NCBI GenBank assembly: GCA_016875875.1
Contig: VGOP01000003.1
Location: forward strand, 98,687 to 162,686
Length of the DNA: 64,000 nt
Direction of reading: 5' to 3'
Source of the DNA: Chloroflexota bacterium
Lineage (GTDB): Bacteria; Chloroflexota; Dehalococcoidia; GIF9; UBA5629
Positions 7,026 to 36,933 of this stretch are shown here, piece by piece. Position numbers and translations under genes: made by a program. The number at the start of each line of letters is the position of its first letter. The stretch's first letter is position 1. The notes beneath the pieces were generated by a model. That model ran no database searches. It saw only the letters and a list, made by a program, of their open reading frames with translations, and had not been told where the DNA came from.

Positions 7026-7892
7026 TTACAATTTAGCAGCATCGAGAATTGCTGGCACCTTGGATTCCAGGCCGATAGCCATTATGTGTGTGCCCTGGCA
7101 CATGCCCTTCATCTCATTTATCAGGCGGGCAGCTATCTCCACACCCTTCTGCAATTTGTTCTCGGCTTTGTCCATCTCGTCAATAAGCTCATCCGGGACA
7201 TGTATACCGGCTACGTTCTTATTCATGAATTTGGCCATAGCTGCTGACCTGAGCACTACTATACCGACTAAAACTGGCACGCCGAATTTCTTAGCTTCTT
7301 TCATAAAGGCTTCGAACGTTTTGGGCTCGTAGATGGCCTGGGTCTGGAAGAACTGGGCGCCGGCCTTTACCTTTCTTTCCATTTTGATGAGCTGCGGTTC
7401 GACAGGGTCGGCTCCGGGAGTAACACAGGCGCCGAGAAAGAACTTGGGTGTGCCCTTTAGTTCTTTGCCAGCTAAATCCTTGCCCTGTTCCAGTTGCTGG
7501 GCAGCATGCAGCAAGGAGACGGAGTCGAGGTCGAAAACAGGTTTGGCATCAGGATGGTCTCCTAAAGTTACATAGTCTCCGGTGAGACAGAGAACATTCT
7601 CAACACCCATAACGTAAGCACTGAGCAAGTCCGATTGGAGGGCGATACGGTTGCGGTCTCGACAGGTCATCTGGAACACTGGCTCGACGCCTTTTTGGTT
7701 GAGCAAGTGACAAGCAACCAGTGACCCCAGCCTCATGACAGCGCTCTGCTGGTCGGTGCAGTTCACGGCATCCACTCTGCCTTTAAGTAATTCGGCATTC
7801 TCGTTGAACTCATGGATATCCACACCCTTAGCTGGGCCGATTTCAGCGGTGACCACAAACTTGCCGTTCTGAAGTTTTTCACGCAGACTCAT
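7026..7892 (-). CDS. metF: Methylenetetrahydrofolate reductase, MetF (acetogen/anaerobe type)
   Basis: MSLREKLQNGKFVVTAEIGPAKG...VDAVNCTDQQSAVMR...FQMTCRDRNRIALQSDLL...LCLTGDY. Start moved to ATG with GGAGGT SD; the track start lies upstream and in-frame. Confidence 0.8.
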   Translation of the reverse strand: MSLREKLQNGKFVVTAEIGPAKGVDIHEFNENAELLKGRVDAVNCTDQQSAVMRLGSLVACHLLNQKGVEPVFQMTCRDRNRIALQSDLLSAYVMGVENVLCLTGDYVTLGDHPDAKPVFDLDSVSLLHAAQQLEQGKDLAGKELKGTPKFFLGACVTPGADPVEPQLIKMERKVKAGAQFFQTQAIYEPKTFEAFMKEAKKFGVPVLVGIVVLRSAAMAKFMNKNVAGIHVPDELIDEMDKAENKLQKGVEIAARLINEMKGMCQGTHIMAIGLESKVPAILDAAKL

Positions 7893-7918
7893 AGTATGGT
7901 TACCTCCTTCAAGGATAG

Positions 7919-8602
7919 CTAAACTTTTGTTTCTTGTTGCTCCAGTGCCCACATTATGGTGGACCTTAGTTCCTTTGGCGGCTGCATTTTGGCGTAGTTC
8001 TTGACTATCGGCATGGTTTGCATTTTATCCAGCCGACCTAGTTTTTTCAGCCTCTCGTAGATTAAGTGCCAGCCGCAATCGCGTACATCGGGTTCAACCT
8101 CGCACTTGCCGTTTTTGGCACCGCCGCAAGGCCCGTTAATGAGCCATTTGGTGCAGGCGGTCAGAGGGCAAATGCCGCCGGTCAAATCGAGCACACAGTC
8201 GCCGCATTCACGGCAACGCTCGCTGCCCCGCCATTCCCCACGGCTACCACCAACATTGATGGTATTAGCCGCCGGATGGACCAGTTTGTTTACCACGGCA
8301 GCAGTAGCCTGGACTCCGATACCGCAGGTCATTACCAACAGGGAATCGGCAGCATCTATTTCATCCTCATGAGGAAACAGTCTGGTCTTAACCAGCGCTT
8401 TGTCACAGAGAAAATCGACAACGCAATAGCCGGTGACGGTCTTGCCTTCCTGCCCCAGTTTCTGCTTCATTTCCAGAACCTGAGGTTCATCGCCAGTCTG
8501 GCAGACCTCAGCACAACCTTTGCAGCCGACTATAAAGATTTTCTTGTCCCCGTCTAAATAGCCCAGGATTTCCGGAAGCGGCTTTAATTCAGAGATTATC
8601 AT
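7919..8602 (-). CDS. metV: MetV-like small subunit of methylene-THF reductase (Cys-rich, zinc-ribbon/Fe-S-like motifs)
   Basis: Cys-rich N- and C-terminal parts (CKGCAEVC, CRECGDC, CPLTAC, NGPCGG, CEVEPDVRDC). Immediately upstream of and co-oriented with metF, as in the acetogen metVF arrangement. Confidence 0.65.
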   Translation of the reverse strand: MIISELKPLPEILGYLDGDKKIFIVGCKGCAEVCQTGDEPQVLEMKQKLGQEGKTVTGYCVVDFLCDKALVKTRLFPHEDEIDAADSLLVMTCGIGVQATAAVVNKLVHPAANTINVGGSRGEWRGSERCRECGDCVLDLTGGICPLTACTKWLINGPCGGAKNGKCEVEPDVRDCGWHLIYERLKKLGRLDKMQTMPIVKNYAKMQPPKELRSTIMWALEQQETKV

Positions 8603-9117
8603 TTGTCTACCTCCATAGCTGTGGTTTCCTCTATCTCCTTGAGAACTAAATTGATTATTTTGGGTATTTTTTCTTCGACTTCTGGGGAGAGGTCAATTCC
8701 GAAGTCCATTGTTTTGGGTTCGATTCCGATGATGACCGTAGATTTTGGTTGTCTGTCAAACAAGGCCATCGTTCTCACGCTGTCTAAAACACCCATCTCG
8801 TGCAGGGAAATAGACGGTGCTGAGTCCAGGTCTACGTCATTTAAGCTGAACCGATAGATGGTACCTGGTCTATCGCCGGCCTTGACGGCATCGATGATGA
8901 TTAATTTGTCTGTGCTGTCATTTACCAGAGACAGGAAGTCGGGGTAAGTGCCAGCGTCAATTATATTGACATTGGCGTTGTCCACAACGCCGGCTAGTTT
9001 TTCAACCAGATGTACGCCTATACCTTCGTCTTTGAGCAACAGGTTGCCTATGCCAAGAACTGTGATTCTGGGACTGCGGCGAAGCGTTTGCGTCTCAGCG
9101 GACTTTGTGTATTCCAA
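8599..9117 (-). CDS. [NiFe]-hydrogenase maturation endopeptidase (HyaD/HycI/HoxM family)
   Basis: ITVLGIGNLLLKDEGIGVHLVEKL...IIDAVKAG...HEMGV. The track start is TTG. Overlaps the end of the large subunit gene. The stop abuts the metV start. Confidence 0.8.
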   Translation of the reverse strand: MEYTKSAETQTLRRSPRITVLGIGNLLLKDEGIGVHLVEKLAGVVDNANVNIIDAGTYPDFLSLVNDSTDKLIIIDAVKAGDRPGTIYRFSLNDVDLDSAPSISLHEMGVLDSVRTMALFDRQPKSTVIIGIEPKTMDFGIDLSPEVEEKIPKIINLVLKEIEETTAMEVDK

Positions 9118-10654
9118 GAGTTCTCCCTTTAAGTGTAATCACGTGTATGGCACAAGCCAGGCAGGGATCGAAGGAGCGGATAATACGCCCGAGCTCAAAG
9201 GGATTCTTTTCATCCTTTATCTTGGTACCGATAAGGGCTTGCTCTACCGGCCCTGGCTGCCCATTGTCATCTTTAGGAGACATATTCCAAGTGCTTGGCA
9301 CGACGCACTGATAATTGGCAATTTTCTTATCTTTAATCTCGATCCAGTGTCCCAGAGCACCTCGGGCACCGTCAACCAGCCCCATTCCGAAGGCTTCGTC
9401 GGGTAAGGTGTAATCTATGTAAGCTGGTTCGCCGGGCTTGAGCTGGAGCAGCCACTCGGGCATAGAATCGGCCAGGAACTTGGTGTAGAGGGCACGGGCA
9501 GCATGGCGGCCGAGTACTGAGAATAGAGCATTGGGGCTGGCGTTAAACTTGGAGAGCACGGAATCAACCAGTTGCTTTACCGTTGGCTCGCCGCTGGCAT
9601 AGGTAGCTGCTATACGGGCCAGCGGACCAACTTCATAGACTTTGCCATCGTACCGAGGAGCTTTCACCCATGAGTAGGCATCTTTCTTGCCCATCTGAGG
9701 CTCGGTCATACCTTTGGACGGATGCTTGCCGGTGCTCGACTCGGCATACCAGGAGTGTTTCACATACTCCATAATCTTGTTCGTGTCGATGGCACCAAGC
9801 TTGAGGTCGGTTGAAATCGTTCCCTGCTTCATAAACCTCTTCCTCTTGGTGTAGTCAGGATTATTGCCTTCGAGGTCGAAACTTCCGTAAGAAAGCAGAT
9901 TGCCGCAACCGGCGCCGATTTCGAAATAGTCAGGATAGGCTTCAGCTACTGCCAGGACATCAGGAATATAGACATTGTTGACGAAGTCCCTTAGCTCATT
10001 CAGCATCCACAGGAAAGAGGCTATTTTGTCTACGGTAACCGTCGCAGTGACTCCGCCCGGGATGACTGCCATATTGTGGGGCATTTTGCCGCCGAAAATA
10101 ACCAGCATTTCCTGCCCCTTGCGCCTCATCTCCAGAGCCTTGACATAATGAGCCAGGGCGCCTATGTTCATCTGGTCGCTGAGCCGGTAATCGCCTTCGT
10201 AGCGAGGCACAAATGGGGCCAGCTCTCCTCGCTTGGCAAATTCTTTGACTGAATTCAAATCTGGGTCGTTGCCATCGTACTTGAGCGCCTTGGTGACGTC
10301 CACGTAATCCAGAGCTGCCAGATGATAGAAGTGCAGTATGTGGTCGGAGACGTGGGCTGCTCCCAGTATGAGATTGCGGATAATCCGGCCGTTATCGGGT
10401 ATCTTATCGGCAAGACCAAAAGCGCTATCCAAATTCAGAGTGGCGGCTATAGAATGGCTTGTGGGACAGACGCCACAGATACGCTGAGTATACATTTGGG
10501 CATCACGGGGGTCTCTACCACGGAGGATGATTTCGAGGCCTCGGAACATCATGCCTGAACTGTGAGCCTCTTTTACCACACCATTCTCGGTGACAACTTC
10601 AACCTTAAAATGTCCTTCAATACGAGTGACAGGGTCAACTACAATCTTGCTCAA
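9095..10654 (-). CDS. [NiFe]-hydrogenase large subunit
   Basis: N-terminal VTRIEGH...RICGVCPTSHS (L1) and C-terminal DPCLACAIH followed by a short cleavable tail (VITLKGRTLGIHKVR). TTG start preceded by AAGGAG. Confidence 0.9.
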   Translation of the reverse strand: MSKIVVDPVTRIEGHFKVEVVTENGVVKEAHSSGMMFRGLEIILRGRDPRDAQMYTQRICGVCPTSHSIAATLNLDSAFGLADKIPDNGRIIRNLILGAAHVSDHILHFYHLAALDYVDVTKALKYDGNDPDLNSVKEFAKRGELAPFVPRYEGDYRLSDQMNIGALAHYVKALEMRRKGQEMLVIFGGKMPHNMAVIPGGVTATVTVDKIASFLWMLNELRDFVNNVYIPDVLAVAEAYPDYFEIGAGCGNLLSYGSFDLEGNNPDYTKRKRFMKQGTISTDLKLGAIDTNKIMEYVKHSWYAESSTGKHPSKGMTEPQMGKKDAYSWVKAPRYDGKVYEVGPLARIAATYASGEPTVKQLVDSVLSKFNASPNALFSVLGRHAARALYTKFLADSMPEWLLQLKPGEPAYIDYTLPDEAFGMGLVDGARGALGHWIEIKDKKIANYQCVVPSTWNMSPKDDNGQPGPVEQALIGTKIKDEKNPFELGRIIRSFDPCLACAIHVITLKGRTLGIHKVR

Positions 10655-10657
10655 TTT

Positions 10658-11554
10658 CTATTTCTCCTTTCCTCGGAGTTTGCCTATAGCGGGCATGTTG
10701 GCGTCGCTTAATTTCTGATAGACAGGAGCCACCAAATCGGGAAATCCGGGCTCGCAGCAGCCGATGCAGGGCGAACCGGCATCGATGCACCAGTTTGTTC
10801 CATGGTTCCATTTCCTCAATGGGCAATCTGCATGAGTAACCGGCCCCTTGCAGCCAAGCTCGTTGAGGCACCCAGGCTCCCCGAACTTCCTGGCAAATTT
10901 TCCTTCATCAAAATAGGCTCGTCTGGGACAATTCTCATGTATTAAATTACCGTAGAAAACCTTGGGGCGTTTAAGTTCATCTAAATCTTCTGGTTTAGGT
11001 AAGCCTAGAAGCAGCACGGAGGCGACCGTGCCTATGAACCAGTCGGGGTGGGGTGGGCAACCTGGTAGATTGACTAAGGGCTTGTTGATTTTGCACGATT
11101 TCAAAAATTTGTCGGTGCCGATATAACCACCGGGGTTAGGCTTGCCAGCAGCGATACCGCCGTAGGCAGCGCAGGTGCCCAGGGCGATGACTGCCAGAGC
11201 ATCCTTGGCTAAAGCTTCAACCCGCTCTGTCATGGGCACCGGTTTGTCGTTTTTCTCACCAAGTGCTCCGTAGATACCACCATCTTTGGTGGGTATGGCG
11301 CCTTCGACTACCAGAACATAGCCGCCTTTATTTGTCTCTGGCATATTTTCGAGGACATGAATTGCGGCTTCTCCTTCGCCAGCCATTACGGTCGCCTGGA
11401 ATTTCAGGCTTACATGTTTACCGGGTACAACTTCATCGATAAGGACATTCTTGATGTTTGGGCTAACTGTATTGAGGACTGTGACTGAACATCCGGTGCA
11501 AGTACCTGTCTGTATCCAGACAACCGGAATTTCTTGAACGTTTGCTTTAGGCAT
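10658..11554 (-). CDS. [NiFe]-hydrogenase small subunit, no Tat signal peptide (cytoplasmic type)
   Basis: MPKANVQEIPVVWIQTGTCTGCSV... proximal cluster motif right at the N-terminus; further Cys ligands (CAAYGG, GCPPHPDW, CPRRAYF, CLNELGCKGP, CIGCCEPGFPD). Start moved to ATG with AAGGGGG SD; the track start is an upstream TTG. No RRxFxK motif. Confidence 0.85.
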   Translation of the reverse strand: MPKANVQEIPVVWIQTGTCTGCSVTVLNTVSPNIKNVLIDEVVPGKHVSLKFQATVMAGEGEAAIHVLENMPETNKGGYVLVVEGAIPTKDGGIYGALGEKNDKPVPMTERVEALAKDALAVIALGTCAAYGGIAAGKPNPGGYIGTDKFLKSCKINKPLVNLPGCPPHPDWFIGTVASVLLLGLPKPEDLDELKRPKVFYGNLIHENCPRRAYFDEGKFARKFGEPGCLNELGCKGPVTHADCPLRKWNHGTNWCIDAGSPCIGCCEPGFPDLVAPVYQKLSDANMPAIGKLRGKEK

Positions 11555-11703
11555 TCGACCCCCTTTCTTTGCCAAGAGTTGCCAACCGCAAATTCTACAG
11601 GTTTGTGGCGATTAATGCAAGTAGATTCGGTGGCAATTTTTAGATAGGGGTAGCACTCCCTAAACTATACTGCCACTTCTCTTAGCAGAAGGACGAGGAA
11701 ATC

Positions 11704-12024
11704 TTATGGCAACTTGCCCCTCTTCTTCCTTCTTTCTACTATTCTATCCTCTCTCCTTTTGAGATAGCTCGTCCCGATTATACTGAGGGAAGTCAATGCT
11801 ATTGCTGCCCCTATAAGAATATAAAATGCAGTGAACAGGCGGCAGGCGTCAGAAGTCGGGTGCAAGTCTCCGTAACCGGTTGTGGTAAAGGTCGAAACAG
11901 AGAAATAGAAGCATTGAATCCATGTCCATCCCTCAAAATATCTATATGTCACCGTGCCCATTATAATAACCATTATTAACGCGAAAGAAGCGGATACTAT
12001 TTGTGCTCTTATGTTTGATAACAT
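11704..12024 (-). CDS. Minimal two-TM potassium channel (Ion_trans_2 / KcsA-like pore domain), 106 aa
   Basis: TM1, pore helix and canonical K+ selectivity filter TTTGYGD, then TM2 and a basic C-terminal tail (KRREDRIVERRKKRGK). ATG preceded by AAAGGGGAG. Confidence 0.7.
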   Translation of the reverse strand: MLSNIRAQIVSASFALIMVIIMGTVTYRYFEGWTWIQCFYFSVSTFTTTGYGDLHPTSDACRLFTAFYILIGAAIALTSLSIIGTSYLKRREDRIVERRKKRGKLP

Positions 12025-12187: not shown

Positions 12188-13195
12188 CTAGCATATCCGG
12201 GGCAGAAGCTCTCCGCTAAGCATATCAACGATGCGGGATGCCCCGAGCCGCGTCTTCATTATCACCTTGCCTTTGTACTCATCGGTTACCTCACCGATGA
12301 TGGCAGCTTCGGCACCATATTGATTCCGTTTCATCTTGGCCAGAACCATTTGGGCATCGTCTGCGGTGACTATAGCTACCAGCTTGCCTTCATTAGCGAC
12401 ATAAAGCGGGTCGAAGCCGAGAAGCTCGCAGGCAGCTCGTACGCCATCATGTATAGGTATCTTTCCCTCTTCTATCCTGATGCCCACTTTGGACTGTTTG
12501 GCAAATTCGTTGAGTGTGGTGGCTAAGCCGCCTCGAGTTGGGTCACGCAGGGAATGAATTTGCGATGAGTCTTCCGCCATCTGCGACACCAGTTTGTTCA
12601 AGGGGGCGCAGTCGCTTTGAACTGGGACTGAGAACTTCAGCCCTTCGCGCTGGCTCATCACCGCAATGCCGTGGTCGCCGATGGTACCGCTGAGGATAAT
12701 TTTGTCGCCTACTTTGGCATTAGCCCCTGATATATCTATACCCTGTGGGACGATACCTATGCCCGAGGTGTTGATGAACAGTTTATCAGCACCGCCCCGG
12801 TTTACCACCTTGGTATCGCCGGTGACTATCTTCACTCCAGCTTCTTCAGCGGCAGCTTTTATTGAGCTGACTATCTTTTTCAGTTCGCCGAGCGTTAAGC
12901 CTTCTTCTATAATGAACGATAGGCTCAGGTACAGTGGTGTGGCTCCGCTCATGGCTATGTCGTTAATGGTGCCGCAGACAGCTAGCTTTCCAATGTCGCC
13001 GCCGGGGAAGAAGATGGGACTAACTACATAGCTGTCAGTGGTGAAGGCAAGGCGACCGCTGAGGTCGAAAACTGCCGAATCGTCCAGTTTGGCTAATAGC
13101 GGATTGGCTAGAGGCGGCAGGAAATTTTTCTCTATCAGCTCATGACTCAGCCGGCTGCCGCTGCCATGAGCCAGCAGGATTATTTCATCATCCAT
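12188..13195 (-). CDS. hypE: Hydrogenase maturation factor HypE (carbamoyl dehydratase)
   Basis: PurM-like fold, C-terminal PRIC motif ending the protein. Confidence 0.9.
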   Translation of the reverse strand: MDDEIILLAHGSGSRLSHELIEKNFLPPLANPLLAKLDDSAVFDLSGRLAFTTDSYVVSPIFFPGGDIGKLAVCGTINDIAMSGATPLYLSLSFIIEEGLTLGELKKIVSSIKAAAEEAGVKIVTGDTKVVNRGGADKLFINTSGIGIVPQGIDISGANAKVGDKIILSGTIGDHGIAVMSQREGLKFSVPVQSDCAPLNKLVSQMAEDSSQIHSLRDPTRGGLATTLNEFAKQSKVGIRIEEGKIPIHDGVRAACELLGFDPLYVANEGKLVAIVTADDAQMVLAKMKRNQYGAEAAIIGEVTDEYKGKVIMKTRLGASRIVDMLSGELLPRIC

Positions 13196-13222
13196 AATCA
13201 GCTCCGTACTTATAGTAGAGAA

Positions 13223-13281
13223 TGTAGGGCCAGGTCTTTAGACCTGTCCGAGGTGGACAGACCTGAAGGTCTGTCCCTACA
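13223..13281. repeat. 59-nt near-perfect palindrome between hypD and hypE (arms TGTAGGGCCAGGTCTTTAGACCTGTCC / GGACAGACCTGAAGGTCTGTCCCTACA), followed by GTTTTTCTCC
   Basis: Read directly; related half-elements (TGTAGGG..AGG[C/T]CTTTAG[A/G]CCTGTCC) at 42862..42888 and (GTAGGGACAGG) at 43305..43315. Confidence 0.5.
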
Positions 13282-13326
13282 GTTTTTCTCCTTACAAAGG
13301 AGAGGGGGATTAAGGGGGTGAGGTTG

Positions 13327-14412
13327 CTAAACAATTTCATATTGATAATAAGCGGCACAGGCACCTTCTGAAGATACCATGCATGGCCCTACAGGTTGCT
13401 CTGGAAAACAGGCCTTGCGGAATAGCTTGCACTCATTAGGAGTCTTTACACCGCGAAGGATATCGCCGCAGATGCAGCCCTTCGCTTCTCGGACCGGCTC
13501 CAGGGTTACTGAAAAGGCTAGCTCGGCGTCGAAACGTCCGTATTCCTTTCTCAGTTTCAGGCCGCTGGCTGGAACAACGCCTATACCTCTCCAATCGGCG
13601 CCACTGACTTCAAAAACGCTGTCCATTAGCTTTAAGGCTGTTATGTTACCTTCAGGCTTAACGCCACGGCGGTAGGCTATCTCCACCCGCGGCTTGCCGC
13701 TTTCGATTTGCTCCACCAGCATGGCTACGGACTGCAGAATATCCAGCGGCTCGAAGCCTGAGACTACGCAGGCAACGCCGTAGTCGCGGGGGATGAATTC
13801 GTAGTGACGAGAGCCAATTATGGCACTGACATGCCCAGGGCAAACGATGCCGTCCAGCTTGAGCTCACCCAAATCAAGGATAGCTTTCATTATTGGTGGG
13901 CATAGCTTCAGCAGGCAGAGGACGTAAAAGTTTCTGATTCCTTCATTTTCAGCCTGAAAAATGGAGGCGGCGATGGTTGGGCTGGTGGTCTCAAAGCCGA
14001 TGCCGATGAAGATAACCGACCGTGTTGGGTTGTCCCTGGCAATTTGCAGAGCATCTTGGGTGGAGTAGACAATGCGGATATCAGCCTCTTCTGCTCTGAC
14101 TTTCTGCAGGCTGGAATAGCTGCCGGGGACTTTCATCATATCGCCGAAGGTGGTGATAATGACATCGGGCAAGCGGGCCAGGGCAATAGCTTTATCTATA
14201 TCGGCGTTGGCGGTAACACACACCGGGCAGCCCGGGCCAGAGAGCATCTCTACAGTTGGGGGAAGAAGCTGGCGGATACCGTTTCTCATGATGGCTACGG
14301 TGTGCCCGCCGCAGAACTCCATCAGCCTGGCTGGCCTTTTCGACAGTTGCTCTATTCTGGCTACCAGCTTTTTGCCCAGCTCAACATCCCGGTATTCATC
14401 AATAAATTTCAC
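13327..14412 (-). CDS. hypD: Hydrogenase maturation factor HypD
   Basis: MKFIDEYRD..., GPGCPVC and CPVC... Fe-S/CxxC motifs; GTG start sharing a base with the upstream stop (TAGTG). Confidence 0.9.
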   Translation of the reverse strand: MKFIDEYRDVELGKKLVARIEQLSKRPARLMEFCGGHTVAIMRNGIRQLLPPTVEMLSGPGCPVCVTANADIDKAIALARLPDVIITTFGDMMKVPGSYSSLQKVRAEEADIRIVYSTQDALQIARDNPTRSVIFIGIGFETTSPTIAASIFQAENEGIRNFYVLCLLKLCPPIMKAILDLGELKLDGIVCPGHVSAIIGSRHYEFIPRDYGVACVVSGFEPLDILQSVAMLVEQIESGKPRVEIAYRRGVKPEGNITALKLMDSVFEVSGADWRGIGVVPASGLKLRKEYGRFDAELAFSVTLEPVREAKGCICGDILRGVKTPNECKLFRKACFPEQPVGPCMVSSEGACAAYYQYEIV

Positions 14413-15137
14413 TATTCGACTCTTTCTTCCAGGACAGTTTCACCAGCAAGCTTCCCGTTGGTTAGCTGCAACAACGCCTGCTCGGCTTGCTCGAGATTAT
14501 TTGCCAAATCTTCAAGAAGGCTTAGATACTCTGCAGACTTGTTTTTAAATTTATCCAGGTACTTCTGCTTTATCGCCGGGTCTGAGTTACCGATGCTGTC
14601 CCCAATGTTAGTGAGGACGTACTCATTAGTATTCTTGTAGCTCATGGCTAAGTGCTCTGCGCCATTCAGCGTCGACTGAAGCTGGTTGCACAGATCCAGC
14701 CACTGGGGCATGGTGGAATTATCGGACGGCCTTGTTGCTCGTACCTTTTCCGCCATCTCTAAAGACATATCGCAATAAAGCACTAGAGTCCCTGCCGATT
14801 CTGGCCGCGGCAGCATCTCGGGCAGGGGGATCCACTTACAGCCGCTGCTTTCATCAAATGACCCTTTTGTAGTCACATACTCACCCAGCTTACATACGTC
14901 ACTCGGCGGCACTTCCAGGCCAATAACGGAAAACTCATCCCAGGTGAAATCTTTGAGCTCCAAGGCTATACCACGAGTCTCCTCAATATAACCCTTCATC
15001 GCATCATAGGGGTCGACAGGCTTGCGTTCCTCAATTCGGTTGAGACTTCTGGGGACCCACAATAAAGCCAGGCCGGCGAGCAAAAGCACAACTCCAGCAA
15101 CCAAAGCGGCATGCAATACGTACCTATTCCGCTTCAT
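14412..15137 (-). CDS. Hypothetical N-terminally membrane-anchored protein embedded in the hyp operon (no recognisable family)
   Basis: KRNR followed by a hydrophobic helix (LHAALVAGVVLLLAGLALLW), then a ~200-aa soluble domain with scattered Cys and a C-terminal coiled-coil-like segment. Start overlaps the hypC 3' end and the stop overlaps the hypD start. Confidence 0.5.
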   Translation of the reverse strand: MKRNRYVLHAALVAGVVLLLAGLALLWVPRSLNRIEERKPVDPYDAMKGYIEETRGIALELKDFTWDEFSVIGLEVPPSDVCKLGEYVTTKGSFDESSGCKWIPLPEMLPRPESAGTLVLYCDMSLEMAEKVRATRPSDNSTMPQWLDLCNQLQSTLNGAEHLAMSYKNTNEYVLTNIGDSIGNSDPAIKQKYLDKFKNKSAEYLSLLEDLANNLEQAEQALLQLTNGKLAGETVLEERVE

Positions 15138-15354
15138 CGCCAAGCCTCACCATCTCCTCCAATATCTTCAGTGTCTCCTGGGCTTCGGCTTCGTCGATAA
15201 CGTTTATGGCATAGCCGGTGTGTAGCAGGACATAATCGCCGACCTTGGCCTCCGGGGTAAGCATTATGCTGACTCGGCGTTTTACACCGCCGATTTCCAC
15301 CTCAGCTTCATTGCCGTCTATCGAAGTAACCTGTACTGGAACAGCTAAACACAT
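15124..15354 (-). CDS. hypC: Hydrogenase maturation factor HypC
   Basis: N-terminal MCLAVP motif, 76 aa. Confidence 0.85.
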   Translation of the reverse strand: MCLAVPVQVTSIDGNEAEVEIGGVKRRVSIMLTPEAKVGDYVLLHTGYAINVIDEAEAQETLKILEEMVRLGDEAE

Positions 15355-15364
15355 AGTTTTCCTT

Positions 15365-17668
15365 TCAACTGAAATTGGCGATGACGGCCTGGCCTAAGGA
15401 GATACCGCCGTCATTACATGGCACCTGCTTATGGGTTAACACCGAAAAGTCGACAGATTCAAGCAAAGGCACGACTTTTCTTAGCAGCAACCGATTCTGG
15501 AAGACACCGCCGCTCAAGGCTACCCGGTTAATTCCGGTCTTCTTGGCTATCAATTGACACATCTTGCATATCATCTGGGCTGCGGTATTGTGAAATCGGG
15601 CTGATATTGTAGCTTTAGACACGTCTTGATATAAATCCTTGACTATGGCAGAAAGCAGCTCTTTGAGCTGGATGATATTTGTCCCATCATGCTCAACTAT
15701 AGAATATGGGTAACTGTCACTGCCGACTTCATCGCCAGCATCATAGGCTGCCATCTCAAGCTCGACAGCTGCCTGACCTTCATAATCTATCTCGCCCCTG
15801 ATGCCTAGCAAGGCTGATACGGCATCGAATAGACGCCCCATACTCGAAGACAATGGTGAGTTAAGTCCGGTCTGGATTTGCCGCTTGATAAGCTCAATTT
15901 CAACAGCATCAACTTGCTTCAAGAAACCTAGTTTGGGGCTGATGGAGTCCTCTCCCAGTAGCTTGAGAAGGTAGCCTATGGCAGTTCGGTACGGCCTTCT
16001 GATGGCAGCAGCTCCACCGGGCAAAGGGAGGTACTCAAGGTGCCCCATTCTCTGGAAACCTTTGTAATCAGCGGCCAGAAATTCTCCTCCCCAGATGCGC
16101 CCATCGCTACCATATCCCGTGCCGTCTAAAGCCACACCGATAACCGGCGACTCTACTCCATTGTCAACCATACAGCTAACGATGTGGGCATGATGGTGCT
16201 GAACCGGCACGAGCTTAAGATGGCTGAACTGGCTACCCAGCTCCAGCGCGTATTTGGTTGAAAGGTATTCCGGATGGAGGTCATAGGCAACGATTTCAGG
16301 CTCGATACGGAACAGCTTTTTATACAGAGCTAATGTGTTTTCGAAATGTTCCATGGTCTCCAGGTTTTCCATGTCGCCGATATGCTGGCTGATGAAGGCA
16401 TAATTGTCTTTGGTTAAACAGAAAGTGTTCTTCTCCTCAGCACCACAGCCGAGCACCTGCTTAGCTGTGAAAGGTAGGTGAATAGGATACGGTGCATAGC
16501 TGCGAGCACGCCGTGTAAGCTGGAGCTCGCCTCTTTCGATGACAGTCACACTGTCGTCATACCTGGCATGTATGTCACGGTTATGGACCAGGAAGCAATC
16601 AGCAATTCCCAAGAGCCGTCTGACAGCCTCATCGTTATCTTTGGCAATCGGCTCCTCGCTGATATTGCCGCTGGTCATTACCAACGGCAGTCCTATATCT
16701 CTGAGCAAGAGATGATGCAGTGGAGTGTATGGTAGCATCACACCAAGGTATTTAAGGTTTGGAGTTACTGCCTCGCATACCGTGGACTCTGGCTTCCACC
16801 CCATCAGCACTATTGGACTCTGCGCCGATGTAAGCAGCTTTTCTTCTATTTCAGATACGTAGCAATGTCTCTTAGCTTCCTCTATGTCGGCGACCATTAT
16901 GGCTAGTGGCTTGAATGGGCGTCTCTTTCTCTGGCGCAGCAGTTCAACAGCTTTCTCACTGGTGGCATCGCAGGCCAGGAGAAAACCACCCAGACCCTTG
17001 ATGGCAAGAATTTTTCCTTCTTTGAGAAGACGGCTGGCAATGACAATGACGTCGGATGTTTCGACATGATTTCCCTTGACATCGAGCAGTTCCAGCTCTG
17101 GCCCGCATTTGGGGCAGGCATTGGGCTGAGCGTGGAAACGGCGGTCTAAAGGGTTTTTGTACTCTATCTGGCAATCAGTGCACATCTGAAAGGAGCGCAT
17201 GGTGGTTTTGGGACGGTCGTAGGGAATGTCTTCTATAATGGTGAAGCGGGGGCCGCAATTGGTACAGTTAGTGAAGGGGTAATGGTAGCGTCTGTCTTCG
17301 GGGTTGAAGATTTCCTCAAGGCAGGCCAGGCAAGTAGCGATGTCCGGAGACACCAGTTGATATTTGTCTGCTTCGGCGATGCTACTACGGATTTCAAAGT
17401 TTGTGTAGTCTGTCGGCGGATGATAGGTAACAGTTATGCTTTCTATGCGAGCCAGCGGCGGTGCCTTATCTTGGAGGTCAAACAAGAAACGCTTCAGATC
17501 TTTGCTTTCACCTTGAACTTCAATTTTAACATCCTCGGAGGTATTGCAAACCCAGCCTTTCAGGTTGTATTTAGCAGCCAGCTGATAAACGAAAGGCCTG
17601 AAGCCAACCCCCTGAACCACGCCGCGAGTGCTTATTCGAGCTAATTCTACTGTTCCAACTCTAGCCAT
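15365..17668 (-). CDS. hypF: Carbamoyltransferase HypF
   Basis: Acylphosphatase domain (VQGVGFRPFVY), two Zn-finger CxxC pairs (CLACLEE...CTNCGPRF; CTDCQIEY...CPKCGP), YrdC-like and Kae1/YgjD-like domains. Track start is TTG; ATG two codons in (MARV...). Confidence 0.9.
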   Translation of the reverse strand: MARVGTVELARISTRGVVQGVGFRPFVYQLAAKYNLKGWVCNTSEDVKIEVQGESKDLKRFLFDLQDKAPPLARIESITVTYHPPTDYTNFEIRSSIAEADKYQLVSPDIATCLACLEEIFNPEDRRYHYPFTNCTNCGPRFTIIEDIPYDRPKTTMRSFQMCTDCQIEYKNPLDRRFHAQPNACPKCGPELELLDVKGNHVETSDVIVIASRLLKEGKILAIKGLGGFLLACDATSEKAVELLRQRKRRPFKPLAIMVADIEEAKRHCYVSEIEEKLLTSAQSPIVLMGWKPESTVCEAVTPNLKYLGVMLPYTPLHHLLLRDIGLPLVMTSGNISEEPIAKDNDEAVRRLLGIADCFLVHNRDIHARYDDSVTVIERGELQLTRRARSYAPYPIHLPFTAKQVLGCGAEEKNTFCLTKDNYAFISQHIGDMENLETMEHFENTLALYKKLFRIEPEIVAYDLHPEYLSTKYALELGSQFSHLKLVPVQHHHAHIVSCMVDNGVESPVIGVALDGTGYGSDGRIWGGEFLAADYKGFQRMGHLEYLPLPGGAAAIRRPYRTAIGYLLKLLGEDSISPKLGFLKQVDAVEIELIKRQIQTGLNSPLSSSMGRLFDAVSALLGIRGEIDYEGQAAVELEMAAYDAGDEVGSDSYPYSIVEHDGTNIIQLKELLSAIVKDLYQDVSKATISARFHNTAAQMICKMCQLIAKKTGINRVALSGGVFQNRLLLRKVVPLLESVDFSVLTHKQVPCNDGGISLGQAVIANFS

Positions 17669-17819
17669 AAACAAATGAATTGTACTTCAGGCGAGTGCCG
17701 AGGGCAAATTTGAAATCTTTTCTTCGCAGATTCGCCTACACCTGCTTGACAGCGATGATATATGGTGCTACGATAGCCTCGTTATCCGAGGCATAACACA
17801 TTATGTTAACTGGAAAGGC

Positions 17820-19331: not shown

Positions 19332-21993
19332 CTAATAAGCCTGGCTGTAAATTTGCAGAACTTCATTCGGGTCACTGACAGGGCGCCCATTGAATAGGAC
19401 AGCCGTATCGGCAATAGCATGGAAGGCGCATATGGCCAGGTTCTCTTCCGGAACGCCCACGTCGCGCAGCCTCATCGGATGGCCCACTTTTGTCATCAGT
19501 GCTTCCACTGCGTCCGCTGCTGCCAGGGCGGCATCGCGCTCCGCCATGCCGCTGGTGTTAACGCCCAGGGCCTGTGCTACCTGAGCTAGTTTGTCAGCCG
19601 CGTGATCGACGTTGTACCGCATCACCTTCGGGAGCACTATGCCGCAAGCTGCCCCATGTGGGACATGGTATAGTGTCCCTATAGTATGCGCCATACCATG
19701 TGCCAGGCCGACCTGGGCCATGGTGAATGCCCAACCTGCCATGGTGGCTGCTAACTGCAAATTGAGCCGTGCCTTTTCATTCTCGCCATCGGCTACCACG
19801 AGCGGTAGGTTCTCGTGGATCAGGCGTATAGCCTGCAATGCTTGACCGTCACATATCTTGTTTGCCATGGTGCTTGTCATAGCCTCGATGGCATGTGTCA
19901 GGGCATCCATGGCGGTGGATACGGTTATATCCTTGGGGAAAAGACGTGGTGAAGCGCGGGTCCAGAATAGCCACATTTGGCATGATTCGTGTGTCGACTA
20001 TGAACAGTTTACGTCCCGCGCCTTTGCTTGTGAGTACGGCTATGCTTGTTACTTCACTGCCGGTTCCCGCTGTTGTTGGAATGGCGATATGAGGGGTTTG
20101 AGGCTCAGTGAGTACCAACATGTTCAGATGGTCATTCGCCTTGCCGCCGTTCTTTAAGGTCACACAGACCCCTTTGGCAGTATCGATAACGCTCCCACCA
20201 CCCACGCTTACGATACAGTCCGCCTTCAGTTCGCGGGCCATGGCAGTGGCCGCATCTACTGTTTCCAGATCGGGATCCGACGGGATATTGTCATAGATAC
20301 CCACGCAGAAATCCGCAAGGGCATTCTTCGCCAGCTCAGCCAGCCCGGCCTGCCTTACGCCGGGATCGGTAAGAATCAAAGCCCTGCGGCAGCCAAGATC
20401 CGCAACTGCCTTGTAGATTGAGCTCAGAGCTCCGTGGCCAGCGACTACATTAGTCGGACAGTTGTACGAAAAACCGTCTACCTTTTTATAGTCCGACATA
20501 AGTTGAAAGGAGATATTCGTCTTATGGTCGGCCAGGGCGGACACATGTATTCTCTTGATCTGGGTATATTCATGTAATCCCGCGAGCCCCAGCTCACGTC
20601 CTACGCCGGACTGCTTATACCCACCAAAGGGGCAGAAATCGGCAAAGACGTGGTAATTGTTTATCCACATTGTTCCGGTACGTACCCCGCGGGCTACACG
20701 CTCGGCCCTGGCGGTGTTAGAAGAAAATACCCCTCCTCCCAGGCCATAAATGGAGTCATTGGCAATTGCCACTGCTTCTTCATCGCTGTCGTATTTTATA
20801 ACACAGACAACTGGGCCAAAGATCTCTTCCTGCGCGATACGCATTTTGTTGTTCACGTTGGCGAAAATGGTGGGAGCATAGTAGAATCCGCCATTGATTC
20901 CTTTAACCTCGACGCGTTTTCCACCTGTGATCAGTTCCGCTCCCTCTTCATTACCCATTTTGACGTAACGTTCGACTGTGGCCAATTGCGTCTTGCTGAC
21001 AAGAGGCCCCATGTGCGAGTTAGGGTCCATCTGGTATCCGATGCGGATAGATTCAGCTCGCTTTTTCATCTTGTCGAGGAACTCATCATATATCTTTGAT
21101 GAGACTAGTACGCGTGTACCTGATTCGCATATCTGTCCCTGGTGGAAGAAGGTGCCGAAAACGGCGCCCTCTACGGCCAGGTCCATATCAGCATCGTCAA
21201 GTATGATATTGGCCGATTTACCGCCGAGCTCGAGTGTCACTTTTTTCACCGTGTCGGATGCCAGTCTCATGATTTCACGTCCGACTTCCGTGCTGCCGGT
21301 AAAGGCTATCTTGCCCACATCGGGGTGGGTACAGAGAATTTTGCCCAGCTCTCCCCCTGGTCCGGTTATGACATTTACCACCCCGTTGGGAATGCCGGCC
21401 GCTTTGGCGGCTTCAGCAATGATAAGTGCGCTCAATGGGGTTGCCGAAGCCGGTTTCAAAACGATGGTATTTCCCATTACGAGGGCAGGGGCGATTTTCC
21501 AGAAAGCCATGGTCATGGGGAAGTTCCAGGGAATGATTCCCACGCATACGCCAATTGGCTCCCTGCGGATAAATTCACGGCCCGGTGCAAATACATTCCC
21601 TGAGATCTGGATCTCTTCCTCCCAGGGAAATTTTGTGGCCGCTACTAGACTCAGATTGCGCAATAACCCGATGCCGAGCAAGGGCCCGAACTTGGCGAGT
21701 CCCATGATCTGGTCTGAATCCATGCATTCAGTTGCAGCCAGACGTAGCCCCTGCTGTGCTACCTGGTCGGCAAAATCCTGAATTTTTGCCATACGGGCCA
21801 CCGGGGACAACCCGCTCCAGCCCCCGCTGTCGAAAGCCTTACGTGAGGCGGCTATAGCCGCCTCTGCATCAGCCTTTCCCGCTTGTGCTACTGTTGCTAT
21901 AGGAGCTTCAGTGCCAGGGTCGATCGATTCGAAGGTCTTTCCGTCTGCGGCGTCGACAAATTCTCCATCAATAAACAGTTTATATTGCTCCAT
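19332..21993 (-). pseudogene. AdhE-like bifunctional aldehyde dehydrogenase / iron-containing alcohol dehydrogenase, interrupted by a frameshift
   Basis: N-terminal ~490 aa is NAD-ALDH superfamily. The Fe-ADH domain follows (GGGSVIDTAKG...), but the frame breaks at ~19930-19945 within a T4/C4 run (coding strand cgtcttttccccaagg). The downstream frame continues the ADH (DITVSTAMDALTHAIEA...HVPHGAACGIVLP...). Track ORFs 19849..21993 and 19332..19976. Confidence 0.6.
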
Positions 21994-23639: not shown

Positions 23640-23984
23640 GTGCACGAATTAGTCATAACGCAGAACATACTGGATATCGTCCTAAAAGAGGCAAAAGCAG
23701 CTCCGGCAAATAAGGTCACCAAGATAAATCTGGTCATCGGTGAGCTATCAGGGGTCGTCAGCGATTCCGTCCTTTTCTACTTCGATTTTCTCAAGAAAGG
23801 TAATGCAGCTGAGGGAGCCACCCTCGATTTTAAACTGGTGCCGGCAGAACTGCGGTGTCGAGACTGCCTGATTGCCTTTAATCCAAAAGACTCCGCATGG
23901 ATTTGTCCGGATTGCCAGGGAACCAATCTTGAGGTGATTAGCGGGCAAGAGTGCCGCGTAGAAAGTATAGAGGTCGAACAATGA
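23640..23984 (+). CDS. hypA: Hydrogenase nickel-insertion protein HypA
   Basis: MHE N-terminus (Ni site) and C-terminal zinc site CRDC...CPDC. Confidence 0.85.
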   Translation: MHELVITQNILDIVLKEAKAAPANKVTKINLVIGELSGVVSDSVLFYFDFLKKGNAAEGATLDFKLVPAELRCRDCLIAFNPKDSAWICPDCQGTNLEVISGQECRVESIEVEQ

Positions 23985-25129
23985 AGACACCGGATTTAAT
24001 AGTTAAGGGGAAAGATAATGGAGAAGGTATGGTCATCCATTATAAGACCACTAAAGGAACCGATGTCTTCGGATTGGCCATACCTAACATATACACCCAT
24101 GCCGATTGGGACCTTGGGCCTACCTGGTGTTATTTAGTCGTTGGCCAGAAGACTACCTTGATAGACACTGGCCGGCTCGGTAACTTCGAGGTTTTTGGGA
24201 TTCTTCTAAAGTCAATAGGCAAGGGATTTTCGGATATCGATAGAACCGTCGTCACCCACAGCCACGAAGACCATGATGGTAATGTGGTTGAAATAATCTC
24301 CGCAACGCAGACTGAATTATGGGCCCACGCAATTTACCGCCAGATGATTTCCTATCACCCCCACATAAAAGAAGGCGCCCTGCATCCTGAGCTGCCCGGT
24401 TCTTGCCGTTTCTGCAGAATGCCTGAAACCTTCTACAAGAACTGCTTACCATACCATAAGGCAAGAAGTTCGTTGAAAATTGACTTTAATATCGAGGATG
24501 ACCAAGAGCTGCCAGACGACGCCCTTAGCTTCGTCTTTACCCCGGGGCACACCCCCGACTCGATCTGCATCGTTTTGGAGGATGAGGCTATATTTACCGG
24601 TGATACCTTACTGCCTGACATCACCTCTCAGCCTTCCCTGGCATATGCCTTCGAAGTCAATCGCCGGATCTTACCAGAAGGGTATCGCCGAAGAAACAAT
24701 GTTTACGGGCTAATGAACTATATCAAATCTTTAAGCAAGATAGCCCATCTTGCCTCACAGCCCCTTAAAGCTACCTTTCCCGCCCATCGCCTGTTCTATA
24801 ACGGTCGGTTCAACCTTCTTGGTAGTGCCGAGCGAGCTAAGGAAATTATCCAGTTTCATATTGACCGCTGTGGCGATATCTTGGAAATTATTGATGACAA
24901 ACCGGCTGGCATAAAAGATATCGCCGTCCAGCATTTTCCTCCTTCGCGGCTTGCTGGCATGGGAAAAGCATTAGCGGAAAACGAAATCAGGGCTCATATC
25001 GAAATTATGGAGGCGTGTGGCGATATCTGTTGGACTGGCGAAAACAAAAAGCTAGTCCAGCGCACCGGGTCGAAAAATTCCCTAGATTCCATAGGGGCGT
25101 ATTTGCGCTCATCACCATCGAACCGCTAG
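23981..25129 (+). CDS. MBL-fold metallo-hydrolase
   Basis: HSHEDHDG motif (HxHxDH), downstream ...TPGHTPDS...; ATG overlaps the hypA stop (ATGA). Confidence 0.75.
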   Translation: MKTPDLIVKGKDNGEGMVIHYKTTKGTDVFGLAIPNIYTHADWDLGPTWCYLVVGQKTTLIDTGRLGNFEVFGILLKSIGKGFSDIDRTVVTHSHEDHDGNVVEIISATQTELWAHAIYRQMISYHPHIKEGALHPELPGSCRFCRMPETFYKNCLPYHKARSSLKIDFNIEDDQELPDDALSFVFTPGHTPDSICIVLEDEAIFTGDTLLPDITSQPSLAYAFEVNRRILPEGYRRRNNVYGLMNYIKSLSKIAHLASQPLKATFPAHRLFYNGRFNLLGSAERAKEIIQFHIDRCGDILEIIDDKPAGIKDIAVQHFPPSRLAGMGKALAENEIRAHIEIMEACGDICWTGENKKLVQRTGSKNSLDSIGAYLRSSPSNR

Positions 25130-32313: not shown

Positions 32314-33348
32314 CTATGAATCTTCCACTTTTGTGGCGCCAGTGACACTCACAATTTCCGGGTCCATGCCGGATAGTTTGGCACATTGTTCCAGTTCACG
32401 CACCGTGTCTTTGCCCATAAGCGGCATATTGGCATATTCCCAGGCGATACCTAGTCTGCGGTACTTATCGCGACAGAGATTGTTAAAGGCGCACAGTTCC
32501 CATCGCTCGACGACGCCCTGAAGGTTTTTGGCGATGAAAGCGCCGAGGCTGGTGATGTTATCACATGTGGCTGTTGCTTCAGGAATGAGTGGTGTTCTAA
32601 TCCACAGTACTTTTTCAGGAGCCCTATTCAGGATATAGTCACGAATATATAGAAGGTTGTCGAAAATCCTCTGGTTATACTGCCCGGTGAAATTGTAGTG
32701 CTTTTCTAGTTCTGCTTCCTTCAAATCAAACAGAACGATATCGGTATAGGGCAAAACTTTTTCCAGAGACCCGCTGGGACAAACGCCGCAGGTATCAAGA
32801 GCGGTGTTGATTCCTCTTTCCTTGAGGCGGCGGAGCAATGCAGCGGCAAAACCAGGTTGCATCATAGGTTCTCCACCGGAAAGGGTGACACCGCCGCCCG
32901 ACTTCTCAAAATATATCTGGTCTTTGAGCAACTCATCGAAAAGCTCAGCCAGGCTGACTCGCCTGCCCAGAAGCTCCATGGCATTCGCCGGACAGGCTTC
33001 AGCACATTCCCCACAGCCGTTGCAAACTTCGCGGTCAATCACAACTCCCTGTTCTGTCTTGCACAGACAACCTAGGAGGCATACTTTGATGCAGGTACCG
33101 CAGCCGATACACTTGTTTTCCAGCCACTGTATCTGTGGCTCTATCGATATGCTTTCGGGGTTGTGGCACCACAGGCATCTTAGCGGGCATCCCTTGAAGA
33201 ATACCGTGGTGCGTATACCGGGCCCGTCTTCAGTGGAGAACCTCTGCAAGTGCAGTATCAGCCCACTCTGGCTCTTGTCTATACCTTCCAGGGCTGCCTC
33301 TTGGGTTACCACCCGGTCATCAGATATAACGGTCTTTTTGCTTACCAT
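32314..33348 (-). CDS. Glycyl-radical enzyme activating enzyme (radical SAM; with two auxiliary ferredoxin-like 4Fe-4S motifs), AE1
   Basis: CPLRCLWCHNPES radical-SAM CxxxCxxC, plus CIGCGTCIKVC and CNGCGECAEACP. Confidence 0.85.
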   Translation of the reverse strand: MVSKKTVISDDRVVTQEAALEGIDKSQSGLILHLQRFSTEDGPGIRTTVFFKGCPLRCLWCHNPESISIEPQIQWLENKCIGCGTCIKVCLLGCLCKTEQGVVIDREVCNGCGECAEACPANAMELLGRRVSLAELFDELLKDQIYFEKSGGGVTLSGGEPMMQPGFAAALLRRLKERGINTALDTCGVCPSGSLEKVLPYTDIVLFDLKEAELEKHYNFTGQYNQRIFDNLLYIRDYILNRAPEKVLWIRTPLIPEATATCDNITSLGAFIAKNLQGVVERWELCAFNNLCRDKYRRLGIAWEYANMPLMGKDTVRELEQCAKLSGMDPEIVSVTGATKVEDS

Positions 33349-33369
33349 ACTTATACTTAAGCAGCCTTA

Positions 33370-35901: not shown

Positions 35902-36006
35902 TCAATAACTAAGTCGTCTTGTAAACCATCAGTGAATTAGCTGCTATGGTGGAAAAACTATATCATAAGCAGGCTAAAACTACCAACCACCTGCTTCGCT
36001 CTTTAC

Positions 36007-36933
36007 CTAGTTCCCAACCACCTCAAAATCTTCGAATATAGCCAGACACTCTTTCACGCGTGACCGTGACATCCAGGTGGTCATTTTCGTGTCTTCGGTG
36101 TAGCTGTTGTGAACACCAAGCTTTTCTGATTTCTCAATCCATAAGGGATTGTAGTGGAGCAGGGCCACTTTTCTAACCTTATTTCCCTTCAAAAATGAGG
36201 CAACCGCTTCCAAATTCTCCCGCCTATCGGTGATGCCAGGAATAAGGGCAATGCGGGGTAAAATTTGAACACCGTCCTTTTTTTGGGAAGCCTGGTACAG
36301 CTCCTTGAAGTTATGCAATATACGCTCGTTGCTCACCCCGCAATATCTTTTGTGCTCCTGTGGCTCGATTAGCTTGATATCATAATAAATCGAGTCCAGG
36401 TAGGGGTACAGCAATTCGAAGAAGGCAGCGCAATCGAAGTGGCCACATGTTTCAATCAGCGTCTGGATATTGAGTGACCTCAGTTTTTTTAACAGGTCCG
36501 CAGTAAACCTCATAAATAGTGTCGGCTCCCCGCCTGACAAGGTTACGCCTCCACCCGAGGTAACAAAAAAGGGAACGTCCTTTGTTATTGTCTCGATGAC
36601 TTCTTCGATTTCCATGTCACGTCCTACCTTTGTCACGGCATCGGCAGGACAGACCTCGGCGCATTTGAAACAGAGAGTGCACTTGTGTCGGTCAATGAAA
36701 TCTGGGTTATCGCGTGAAAGCGCCTCGGGTTCACACACGTTTATGCAACTGTTGCAGCCAATGCATTCTTTTCTATCCCAGCCTAGTTCATGCCCCACAT
36801 ATTTGCATTCGGGGTTGTGGCACCAAACACAGGAAAGTGGGCATCCCTTAAAGAAGATCACCGTACGTATGCCCGGCCCGTCATCGAGCGAATTGCCCTT
36901 TATATCAAGGATGAGAGGTTTCTTAAATCCCAT
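36007..36933 (-). CDS. Glycyl-radical enzyme activating enzyme, AE2
   Basis: CPLSCVWCHNPE plus CIGCNSCINVC and CTLCFKCAEVCP. Start moved to ATG (MGFKKPLILDIKG...) giving a short overlap with the GRE2 stop; the track start lies within GRE2. Confidence 0.85.
   Translation of the reverse strand: MGFKKPLILDIKGNSLDDGPGIRTVIFFKGCPLSCVWCHNPECKYVGHELGWDRKECIGCNSCINVCEPEALSRDNPDFIDRHKCTLCFKCAEVCPADAVTKVGRDMEIEEVIETITKDVPFFVTSGGGVTLSGGEPTLFMRFTADLLKKLRSLNIQTLIETCGHFDCAAFFELLYPYLDSIYYDIKLIEPQEHKRYCGVSNERILHNFKELYQASQKKDGVQILPRIALIPGITDRRENLEAVASFLKGNKVRKVALLHYNPLWIEKSEKLGVHNSYTEDTKMTTWMSRSRVKECLAIFEDFEVVGN

Follow-up and report, generated by a model that had tools for sequence, protein, structure and literature searches.

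The 64,000-nucleotide stretch of DNA analyzed here, referred to below as the window, comes from contig VGOP01000003.1 of a Chloroflexota bacterium of the Dehalococcoidia, and carries a hyp operon for the maturation of [NiFe]-hydrogenases in which an additional gene, denoted X, lies between hypC and hypD. The operon runs hypF-hypC-X-hypD-hypE on the minus strand (Table 1), and HypF, HypC, HypD, and HypE, all identified through strong Pfam matches, are full-length and in the usual order. As dnaA, gyrB, and gyrA are also found in the window, the region is chromosomal and close to the origin of replication. A first-pass annotation, prepared by a model from the sequence alone, had described X as a membrane-anchored protein embedded in this operon with overlaps on both sides, and these overlaps are present, with 14 nt being shared with hypC, and a single base being common to the TAG stop of X and the GTG start of hypD.

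Gene X and its junctions

X is a real and conserved gene, embedded in the operon. Its homologues are full-length proteins of 228–256 aa, and the median pairwise ratio of nonsynonymous to synonymous substitutions (dN/dS) is 0.15, on which grounds a chance open reading frame (ORF) was rejected. The same homologues and the purifying selection also led to the rejection of a frameshifted piece of a known gene, an outcome that the first-pass annotation had named as fatal to its proposal. The base composition of X (GC 0.50; GC at third codon positions 0.58) is native, matching that of the adjacent genes, and a recent horizontal acquisition was likewise rejected.

The ORF listing includes an alternative TTG start two codons upstream of the ATG at 15137, which is taken here as the start of X because the homologues begin with MKRN. 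Overlaps between hypC and X are also found in related loci (numbered L001 onward, seven of which were contributed by a metagenome scan), where they span 11–14 nt in L001, L004, L007, and L020, and 4 nt in L022. No promoter-like or terminator-like sites were found on the coding strand between hypC and hypD.

Table 1. Positions in the window of the hyp genes, of X, and of the predicted parts of its product.
Feature	Position	Strand	Basis and remarks
X coding sequence	14412..15137	minus	241 aa; ATG 15137, TAG 14412-14414; ORF and junction sequence, full-length homologues, dN/dS 0.15
Shine-Dalgarno-like GGTGAGG	15145..15151	minus	7 nt upstream of the X ATG, within the 3' end of hypC; seen in the sequence itself
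hypC/X overlap, 14 nt	15124..15137	minus	end of hypC over start of X
hypC	15124..15354	minus	Pfam HupF_HypC, 5e-29
hypD	13327..14412	minus	Pfam HypD, 7e-152; GTG start
hypF	15365..17674	minus	Pfam HypF domains
hypE	12188..13195	minus	Pfam AIRS and AIRS_C
Signal-anchor transmembrane helix (predicted), residues 6-28	15054..15122	minus	follows basic MKRNR; hydrophobicity, flank charges, AlphaFold2 helix 4-26; aligns with lipoprotein signal peptides of relatives
Extracytoplasmic acidic four-helix bundle (predicted), residues 43-225	14463..15011	minus	AlphaFold2 model; net charge -16
Small three-stranded beta insert (predicted), residues 72-104, with C82 and C100	14826..14924	minus	AlphaFold2 model; between helices 1 and 2
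hypA	23640..23984	plus	Pfam HypA; TGA overlaps the ATG (~23981) of the metallo-beta-lactamase-fold gene, where relatives carry hypB

The 131-bp spacer between hypD and hypE (13196-13326) contains an inverted repeat, GGGACAGACC-TTCA-GGTCTGTCC, together with a related half-site. Several relatives have hypD and hypE overlapping, or separated by only a few bases.

Topology, fold, and family of the X protein

The X family appears, from the sequence searches, to be undescribed and restricted to uncultured Dehalococcoidia and related Chloroflexi. A search of 5.8 billion proteins recovered only 24 clusters of relatives, with identities of 53–100%, all of them from metagenome bins of Chloroflexi/Dehalococcoidia, and all either unnamed or labeled “hypothetical”. 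When 1.84 billion representatives were searched with a profile, 47 sequences matched over the bundle region at E <= 1e-3, 37 of them at E <= 1e-10. Neither Pfam nor NCBIfam matched X above noise, their models of the known Hyp/Hup accessory families included. Scans of X and its relatives, the 37 family members among them, with Pfam, NCBIfam, and PADLOC gave no meaningful match, and the family profile, in a hidden Markov model search of the PDB sequences, found nothing below E = 0.05. The earlier remark that no family is recognized in X thus holds in all these collections. Two distant family members carry a C-terminal 3-keto-disaccharide-hydrolase domain.

The hydrophobic stretch of X covers 23 residues (6–28) and follows the basic MKRNR. 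In nearly all the full-length family members, the charge of the N-terminal flank is +2 to +4, and that of the C-terminal flank is about neutral, while X itself has +3 on the N-terminal side and +1 on the C-terminal side, a moderate positive-inside signal. Outside the X clade, approximately 30 of the 33 full-length members have a signal peptide with a lipobox-type cysteine at its end (…ACGQP, …ACSQP, or …AAGC, for example), which aligns with the end of the hydrophobic helix of X. There is no cysteine before residue 82 in X, which thus lacks the lipobox cysteine. This pattern suggests that, in the X clade, a cleavable lipoprotein signal became an uncleaved signal anchor. That lipobox-bearing proteins are encoded in this genome can be seen from the substrate-binding protein of an ABC transporter in the window, which has the lipobox LLIGC. 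Given that the relatives are lipoproteins, whose mature domains are exported, the bundle domain of X very probably lies outside the cytoplasmic membrane, in an N-in/C-out orientation, in agreement with the membrane anchor and extracytoplasmic C-terminal domain predicted by the first-pass annotation.

The AlphaFold2 model of X, built on an alignment of 37 sequences, has a predicted local distance difference test score (pLDDT) of 89.9 and a predicted template-modeling score (pTM) of 0.76. It places the anchor in a helix at residues 4–26, followed by a bundle formed by the helices 43–62, 112–134, 140–183, and 187–225, with short strands at 72–76, 87–90, and 101–104. What had been described as a coiled-coil-like tail is, in this model, the fourth helix of the bundle, followed by approximately 16 disordered residues at the C-terminus. 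Some of the distant members of the family have lost the beta insert (alignment A2). Only generic helical bundles match the model in structure comparisons, and the resemblance to the four-helix bundles of the pectin methylesterase/invertase inhibitors (PMEI, PF04043) is of this general kind, X having no Pfam match to this family, which is marked by four conserved cysteines.

The several cysteines pointed out previously in the motifs CKLGEY, SGCKW, and YCDM are present, as C82, C100, and C122, together with C150. C82, C122, and C150 are present in every member of the X clade, together with C100, C125, or both, while in more distant members some or all of these residues are missing (alignment A2). 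A functional metal site formed by the cysteines was rejected, as they are not conserved family-wide, and they may instead represent optional disulfide staples, with C122 paired with C150, and C82 with either C100 or C125. The only residues near-invariant across the whole family belong to the hydrophobic core (L61, W66, P110, L153, L157, and F197), and no invariant polar residue was found in alignment A2. The conservation of core residues alone points to a scaffold or binding protein, rather than an enzyme.

Pairwise medians over nine loci give a dN/dS of 0.15 for X and approximately 0.065 for HypC, HypD, HypE, and HypF, with median dN values of 0.26 and approximately 0.10, respectively. X is thus under purifying selection, yet is changing much faster than the Hyp proteins. 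Pairwise identities of X range from 27% to 81% where those of HypD range from 70% to 93%, and the two are correlated (Spearman 0.69).

The hypC-hypD slot in relatives and the loss of hypB

The order hypF-hypC-X-hypD-hypE is found in every one of the approximately 24 loci with an X at least 53% identical to that of the window (L001-L007, L009-L013, L020, L021, L027-L033). The co-occurrence with hypC and hypD proposed earlier as a test of X is thus found in all these loci, and the homologues are not confined to unrelated contexts, given that the closest relatives are also linked to hyp genes. Members of the X family directly follow hypC and/or precede hypD in the window, L001-L013, L020-L023, and L026-L033. 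The hyp-linked members include lipoprotein-type proteins (P0019, P0025, P0026, P0027, and P0030), of which the last four have identities of 30–42% to X. The arrangements of these four are hypC-X-Phd/ParE-hypD in P0026, hypC-X-hypD in P0027, X-hypD-hypE in P0030, and X, two small ORFs, and hypD in P0025. In a neighbor-joining (NJ) tree, the hyp-linked members form a single clade, which fits one capture, followed by descent with the operon. In the sister clade (P0028-like; L014-L019), no hyp gene was found within 10 kb, and the conserved neighbors are cell-surface proteins, with PKD domains, lamin-tail domains, or zinc-ribbon/FN3 domains.

The region between hypC and hypD is variable in its content. 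An extra 157-aa ORF is found in or beside the gap in L001, and an insert of approximately 2 kb with a duplicated 5' fragment of hypD in L010. Toxin–antitoxin modules of the Phd/ParE type are inserted between X and hypD in L022 (5208-5742) and L008 (1156-1422), and between hypF and hypC in L020 (9323-9767). In L022, X is only 37% identical, against 87% for HypD, and the HypD of this locus nests among the lineages with the transmembrane-type X, while its X falls outside that clade (NJ trees), a mismatch that hints at the exchange of a cassette through the conserved flanks. The L022 lineage, which has a lipoprotein-type X (P0026), also carries a gene resembling a class-V aminotransferase/cysteine desulfurase between hypF and hypC (L022 2900-4075).

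In L034, where HypD is 84% identical to that of the window and nests among the X carriers in an NJ tree of HypD, the gap is filled by two paralogous lipoprotein genes (L034 5637-7995; also L035), which encode proteins of 297 and 468 aa. These proteins have the lipobox LPAC and a weak CARDB match, and are unrelated to X. The L034 hyp operon is preceded by a Mvh-type hydrogenase (FlpD, small and large subunits). In Dehalococcoides mccartyi, the accessions of hypC and hypD are consecutive, which indicates that nothing lies between them. Together with the replacement in L034, this suggests that X is no general requirement of HypCD function.

The first-pass annotation also noted that hypB is absent, and a tblastn search with a related HypB found nothing in the 64 kb of the window. 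The annotation had placed hypA 9 kb away, next to a tungstate transporter; the gene lies approximately 8.5 kb away, beside an ABC transporter whose ATPase has a TOBE domain. In the hypA region, the window and L020 are collinear, apart from the 717 bp with hypB, which are missing from the window, and the stop of hypA now overlaps the ATG of a downstream gene of the metallo-beta-lactamase fold (MBL), at a junction within 23640-25129. The absence of hypB is due to a recent, clean deletion of 717 bp between hypA and the MBL gene. In L031, where X is 77% identical, hypB is also missing, with a different 62-nt junction that contains a hairpin, and, because these junctions differ, hypB was probably lost twice in the clade. 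X is far older than the hypB deletions.

The absence of hypB and the position of X inside the hyp operon had led to the proposal that X is a non-orthologous replacement for HypB, the nickel-inserting GTPase. This is almost certainly not the case, given that X coexists with an intact hypA-hypB pair, located upstream of plsX-hypF, in four related genomes (L007, L010, L011, and L020), and that the loss of hypB is a recent event at the hypA locus, probably separate in L031. Nor does X have a P-loop or any GK[ST] motif (Walker A GxxxxGK[ST]), or a PF02492/cobW match at E <= 1, and the location predicted for its domain is outside the cell, whereas a HypB substitute would be located with HypA in the cytoplasm.

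The MBL gene itself follows hypA-hypB in L010 and L020 (the match in L033 is weak), and could be part of that operon.

A probable envelope protein in a maturation operon

X resembles the bacterial surface lipoproteins in a number of ways, given that its relatives have lipobox signal peptides, diverge rapidly, lack conserved catalytic residues, and have surface genes as neighbors. It differs from them in the absence of the lipobox cysteine, in its predicted uncleaved anchor, and in its unusual place inside a cytoplasmic maturation operon. In comparison with the canonical hyp operons (hypA-hypB-hypF-hypC-hypD-hypE in D. mccartyi, and hypABCDE in Escherichia coli), the window is similar in its HypF, HypC, HypD, and HypE, and in having hypA nearby, but differs in the additional membrane-tethered protein encoded between hypC and hypD, and in the deletion of hypB beside hypA. 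The nickel permeases HupE/UreJ and HoxN/NixA, which are encoded among hydrogenase accessory genes, are polytopic membrane proteins, whereas X combines a single helix with a soluble bundle, and matches no Pfam transporter. The literature searched contained no lipoprotein in the hypC-hypD slot of hyp operons and no loss of hypB in the Dehalococcoidia.

With moderate confidence, X is best explained as a fast-evolving envelope protein whose gene entered the hyp operon in a single capture and is expressed together with it, the protein having no direct part in the cytoplasmic chemistry of maturation. The product would be a bitopic protein with a five-residue basic N-terminus in the cytoplasm, the signal anchor at residues 6–28, a short linker, and the acidic bundle at 43–225, which, with its cysteine-bearing beta insert, would be exposed on the external side of the cytoplasmic membrane. 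One branch of a lipoprotein-rich family would have been captured a single time between hypC and hypD, and subsequently inherited with the operon, being transcribed, presumably, from the hyp promoter, with its translation coupled to that of hypC and hypD. Outside the cell, X may be a surface protein with a binding or structural role, rather than an enzyme, and would participate in neither the assembly of Fe(CN)2CO nor the insertion of nickel. If X is absent from this chemistry, its tie to the hyp genes would be one of shared expression. The idea that X is a novel maturation or targeting accessory is weakened by the predicted location of its domain on the wrong side of the membrane, its faster evolution, the paralogues in surface-protein clusters, and the replacement in L034.

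A number of points weigh against this explanation. The gene from a single capture has stayed in its slot, with start/stop overlaps in most cases, down to HypD identities of approximately 70–74%, and this retention is longer than would be expected for a neutral passenger. The trees of X and HypD are single-protein NJ trees with no support values. The only related contig fetched through HypD, independently of X, is L034, and the fact that its slot is also occupied by lipoproteins could mean that there is a need for an outward-facing partner. The same stable linkage, mostly with translational coupling, over a deep divergence, and the lipoproteins of L034, favor a role for X as an outward-facing accessory of hydrogen metabolism, either in the capture or handover of nickel or iron, or as a tether for an outward-facing hydrogenase or electron-transfer complex. 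The very acidic domain, the cysteines kept throughout the X clade, and the flanking of the L001 operon by ZnuABC, Fur, FeoAB, and a TOBE-type ABC transporter are also on its side. This role is nevertheless rather unlikely, given that the cysteines vary across the family, with neither a metal site nor a polar residue conserved family-wide, and that the single histidine of X is not conserved. Hydrogenase small subunits are encoded near the hyp genes in the window, L006, L007, and L034, and that of the window has no twin-arginine signal. The replacement of X by unrelated proteins in L034, its evolution at a rate 3–5 times faster than that of the Hyp proteins, and the paralogues in unrelated surface-protein clusters all argue in the same direction.

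The overlaps with hypC and hypD suggest matched synthesis and, with the positive-inside signal of X being only moderate (+3 against +1), would be consistent with a domain that faces the cytoplasm and serves as a membrane tether for HypC/HypD or the nascent large subunit. This orientation is highly improbable, as the relatives, including those linked to hyp genes, are lipoproteins with mature domains that are always exported, the N-terminal flank carries more positive charge than the C-terminal one throughout the family, and such rapid divergence is atypical of a partner of the slowly evolving HypCD. A likelier possibility than these two roles, though still a tentative one, which refines the envelope-protein explanation rather than opposing it, is that the hypC-hypD gap is a hot-spot of recombination or insertion, and that X is an exchangeable surface cassette, with no functional tie to hyp. 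The varied cargo in or beside the slot (the 157-aa ORF of L001, the insert of approximately 2 kb in L010, and the Phd/ParE modules of L008, L020, and L022) is consistent with such exchange, as are the CARDB lipoproteins in L034, and the position of the L022 X outside the transmembrane-type clade despite the nesting of its HypD, although the correlation between the identities of X and HypD suggests mostly vertical descent, in trees that carry no support values.

A broader proposal, which is distinctly unlikely, is that the hyp operon of these bacteria has a slot for outward-facing lipoproteins (the X family and the CARDB proteins) that is coupled to the biogenesis or use of the [NiFe]-hydrogenase. 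If this were so, the slot proteins might supply metal at the surface or organize an external partner of hydrogen metabolism, and would represent an extracytoplasmic component of [NiFe]-hydrogenase biogenesis found in no current model, while the apparent loss of hypB on two occasions among lineages with X would be a hint that canonical nickel insertion is less strictly needed. If, by contrast, the slot proteins are untied to the hydrogenase, conserved operons would be able to host genes for fast-evolving surface proteins, which would be a warning against inferring function from the position in an operon alone.

Considered as an envelope protein, X looks like an ordinary, lineage-specific member of this class, with no evident new mechanism. 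The analysis nevertheless adds a new orphan family of envelope proteins from the uncultured Dehalococcoidia, and an unusual layout of the hyp operon, in which a variable slot for lipoproteins separates hypC from hypD. A tempting misreading of X, as a new Hyp factor or a substitute for HypB, is also corrected.

The window also contains other genes related to hydrogen and carbon metabolism. Five co-directional genes on the minus strand (7026-11575) encode the small and large subunits of a [NiFe]-hydrogenase, a HycI-type protease, MetV (DUF5981/MTHFR_C), and MetF (methylenetetrahydrofolate reductase, MTHFR); the small subunit is the one encoded beside the hyp genes, already mentioned for its lack of a twin-arginine signal. 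The string from hydrogenase to MetF is also present in L007, and is found in L006 up to MetV, where the locus ends. It may represent a hydrogenase-linked methylenetetrahydrofolate reductase. The hdrABD-mvhD-metVF clusters described from marine Chloroflexi in a 2017 paper do not include the hydrogenase-MetVF arrangement of the window. Between hypE and the gene of the hydrogenase small subunit lies a gene for a two-transmembrane protein of 106 aa that resembles a potassium channel (Ion_trans_2; 11704-12024, minus strand).

Further along the minus strand, an AdhE-like aldehyde/alcohol dehydrogenase (19332-21993) is apparently split into ORFs of 714 and 214 aa in different frames, which could be the mark of a pseudogene or of a frameshift, or an error of sequencing. 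Glycyl-radical enzymes, each paired with its activase, are encoded twice in tandem at 32314-39892, also on the minus strand, one pair being of 843 and 344 aa, and the other formed by a PFL-like enzyme of 989 aa and a radical-SAM activase of 356 aa.

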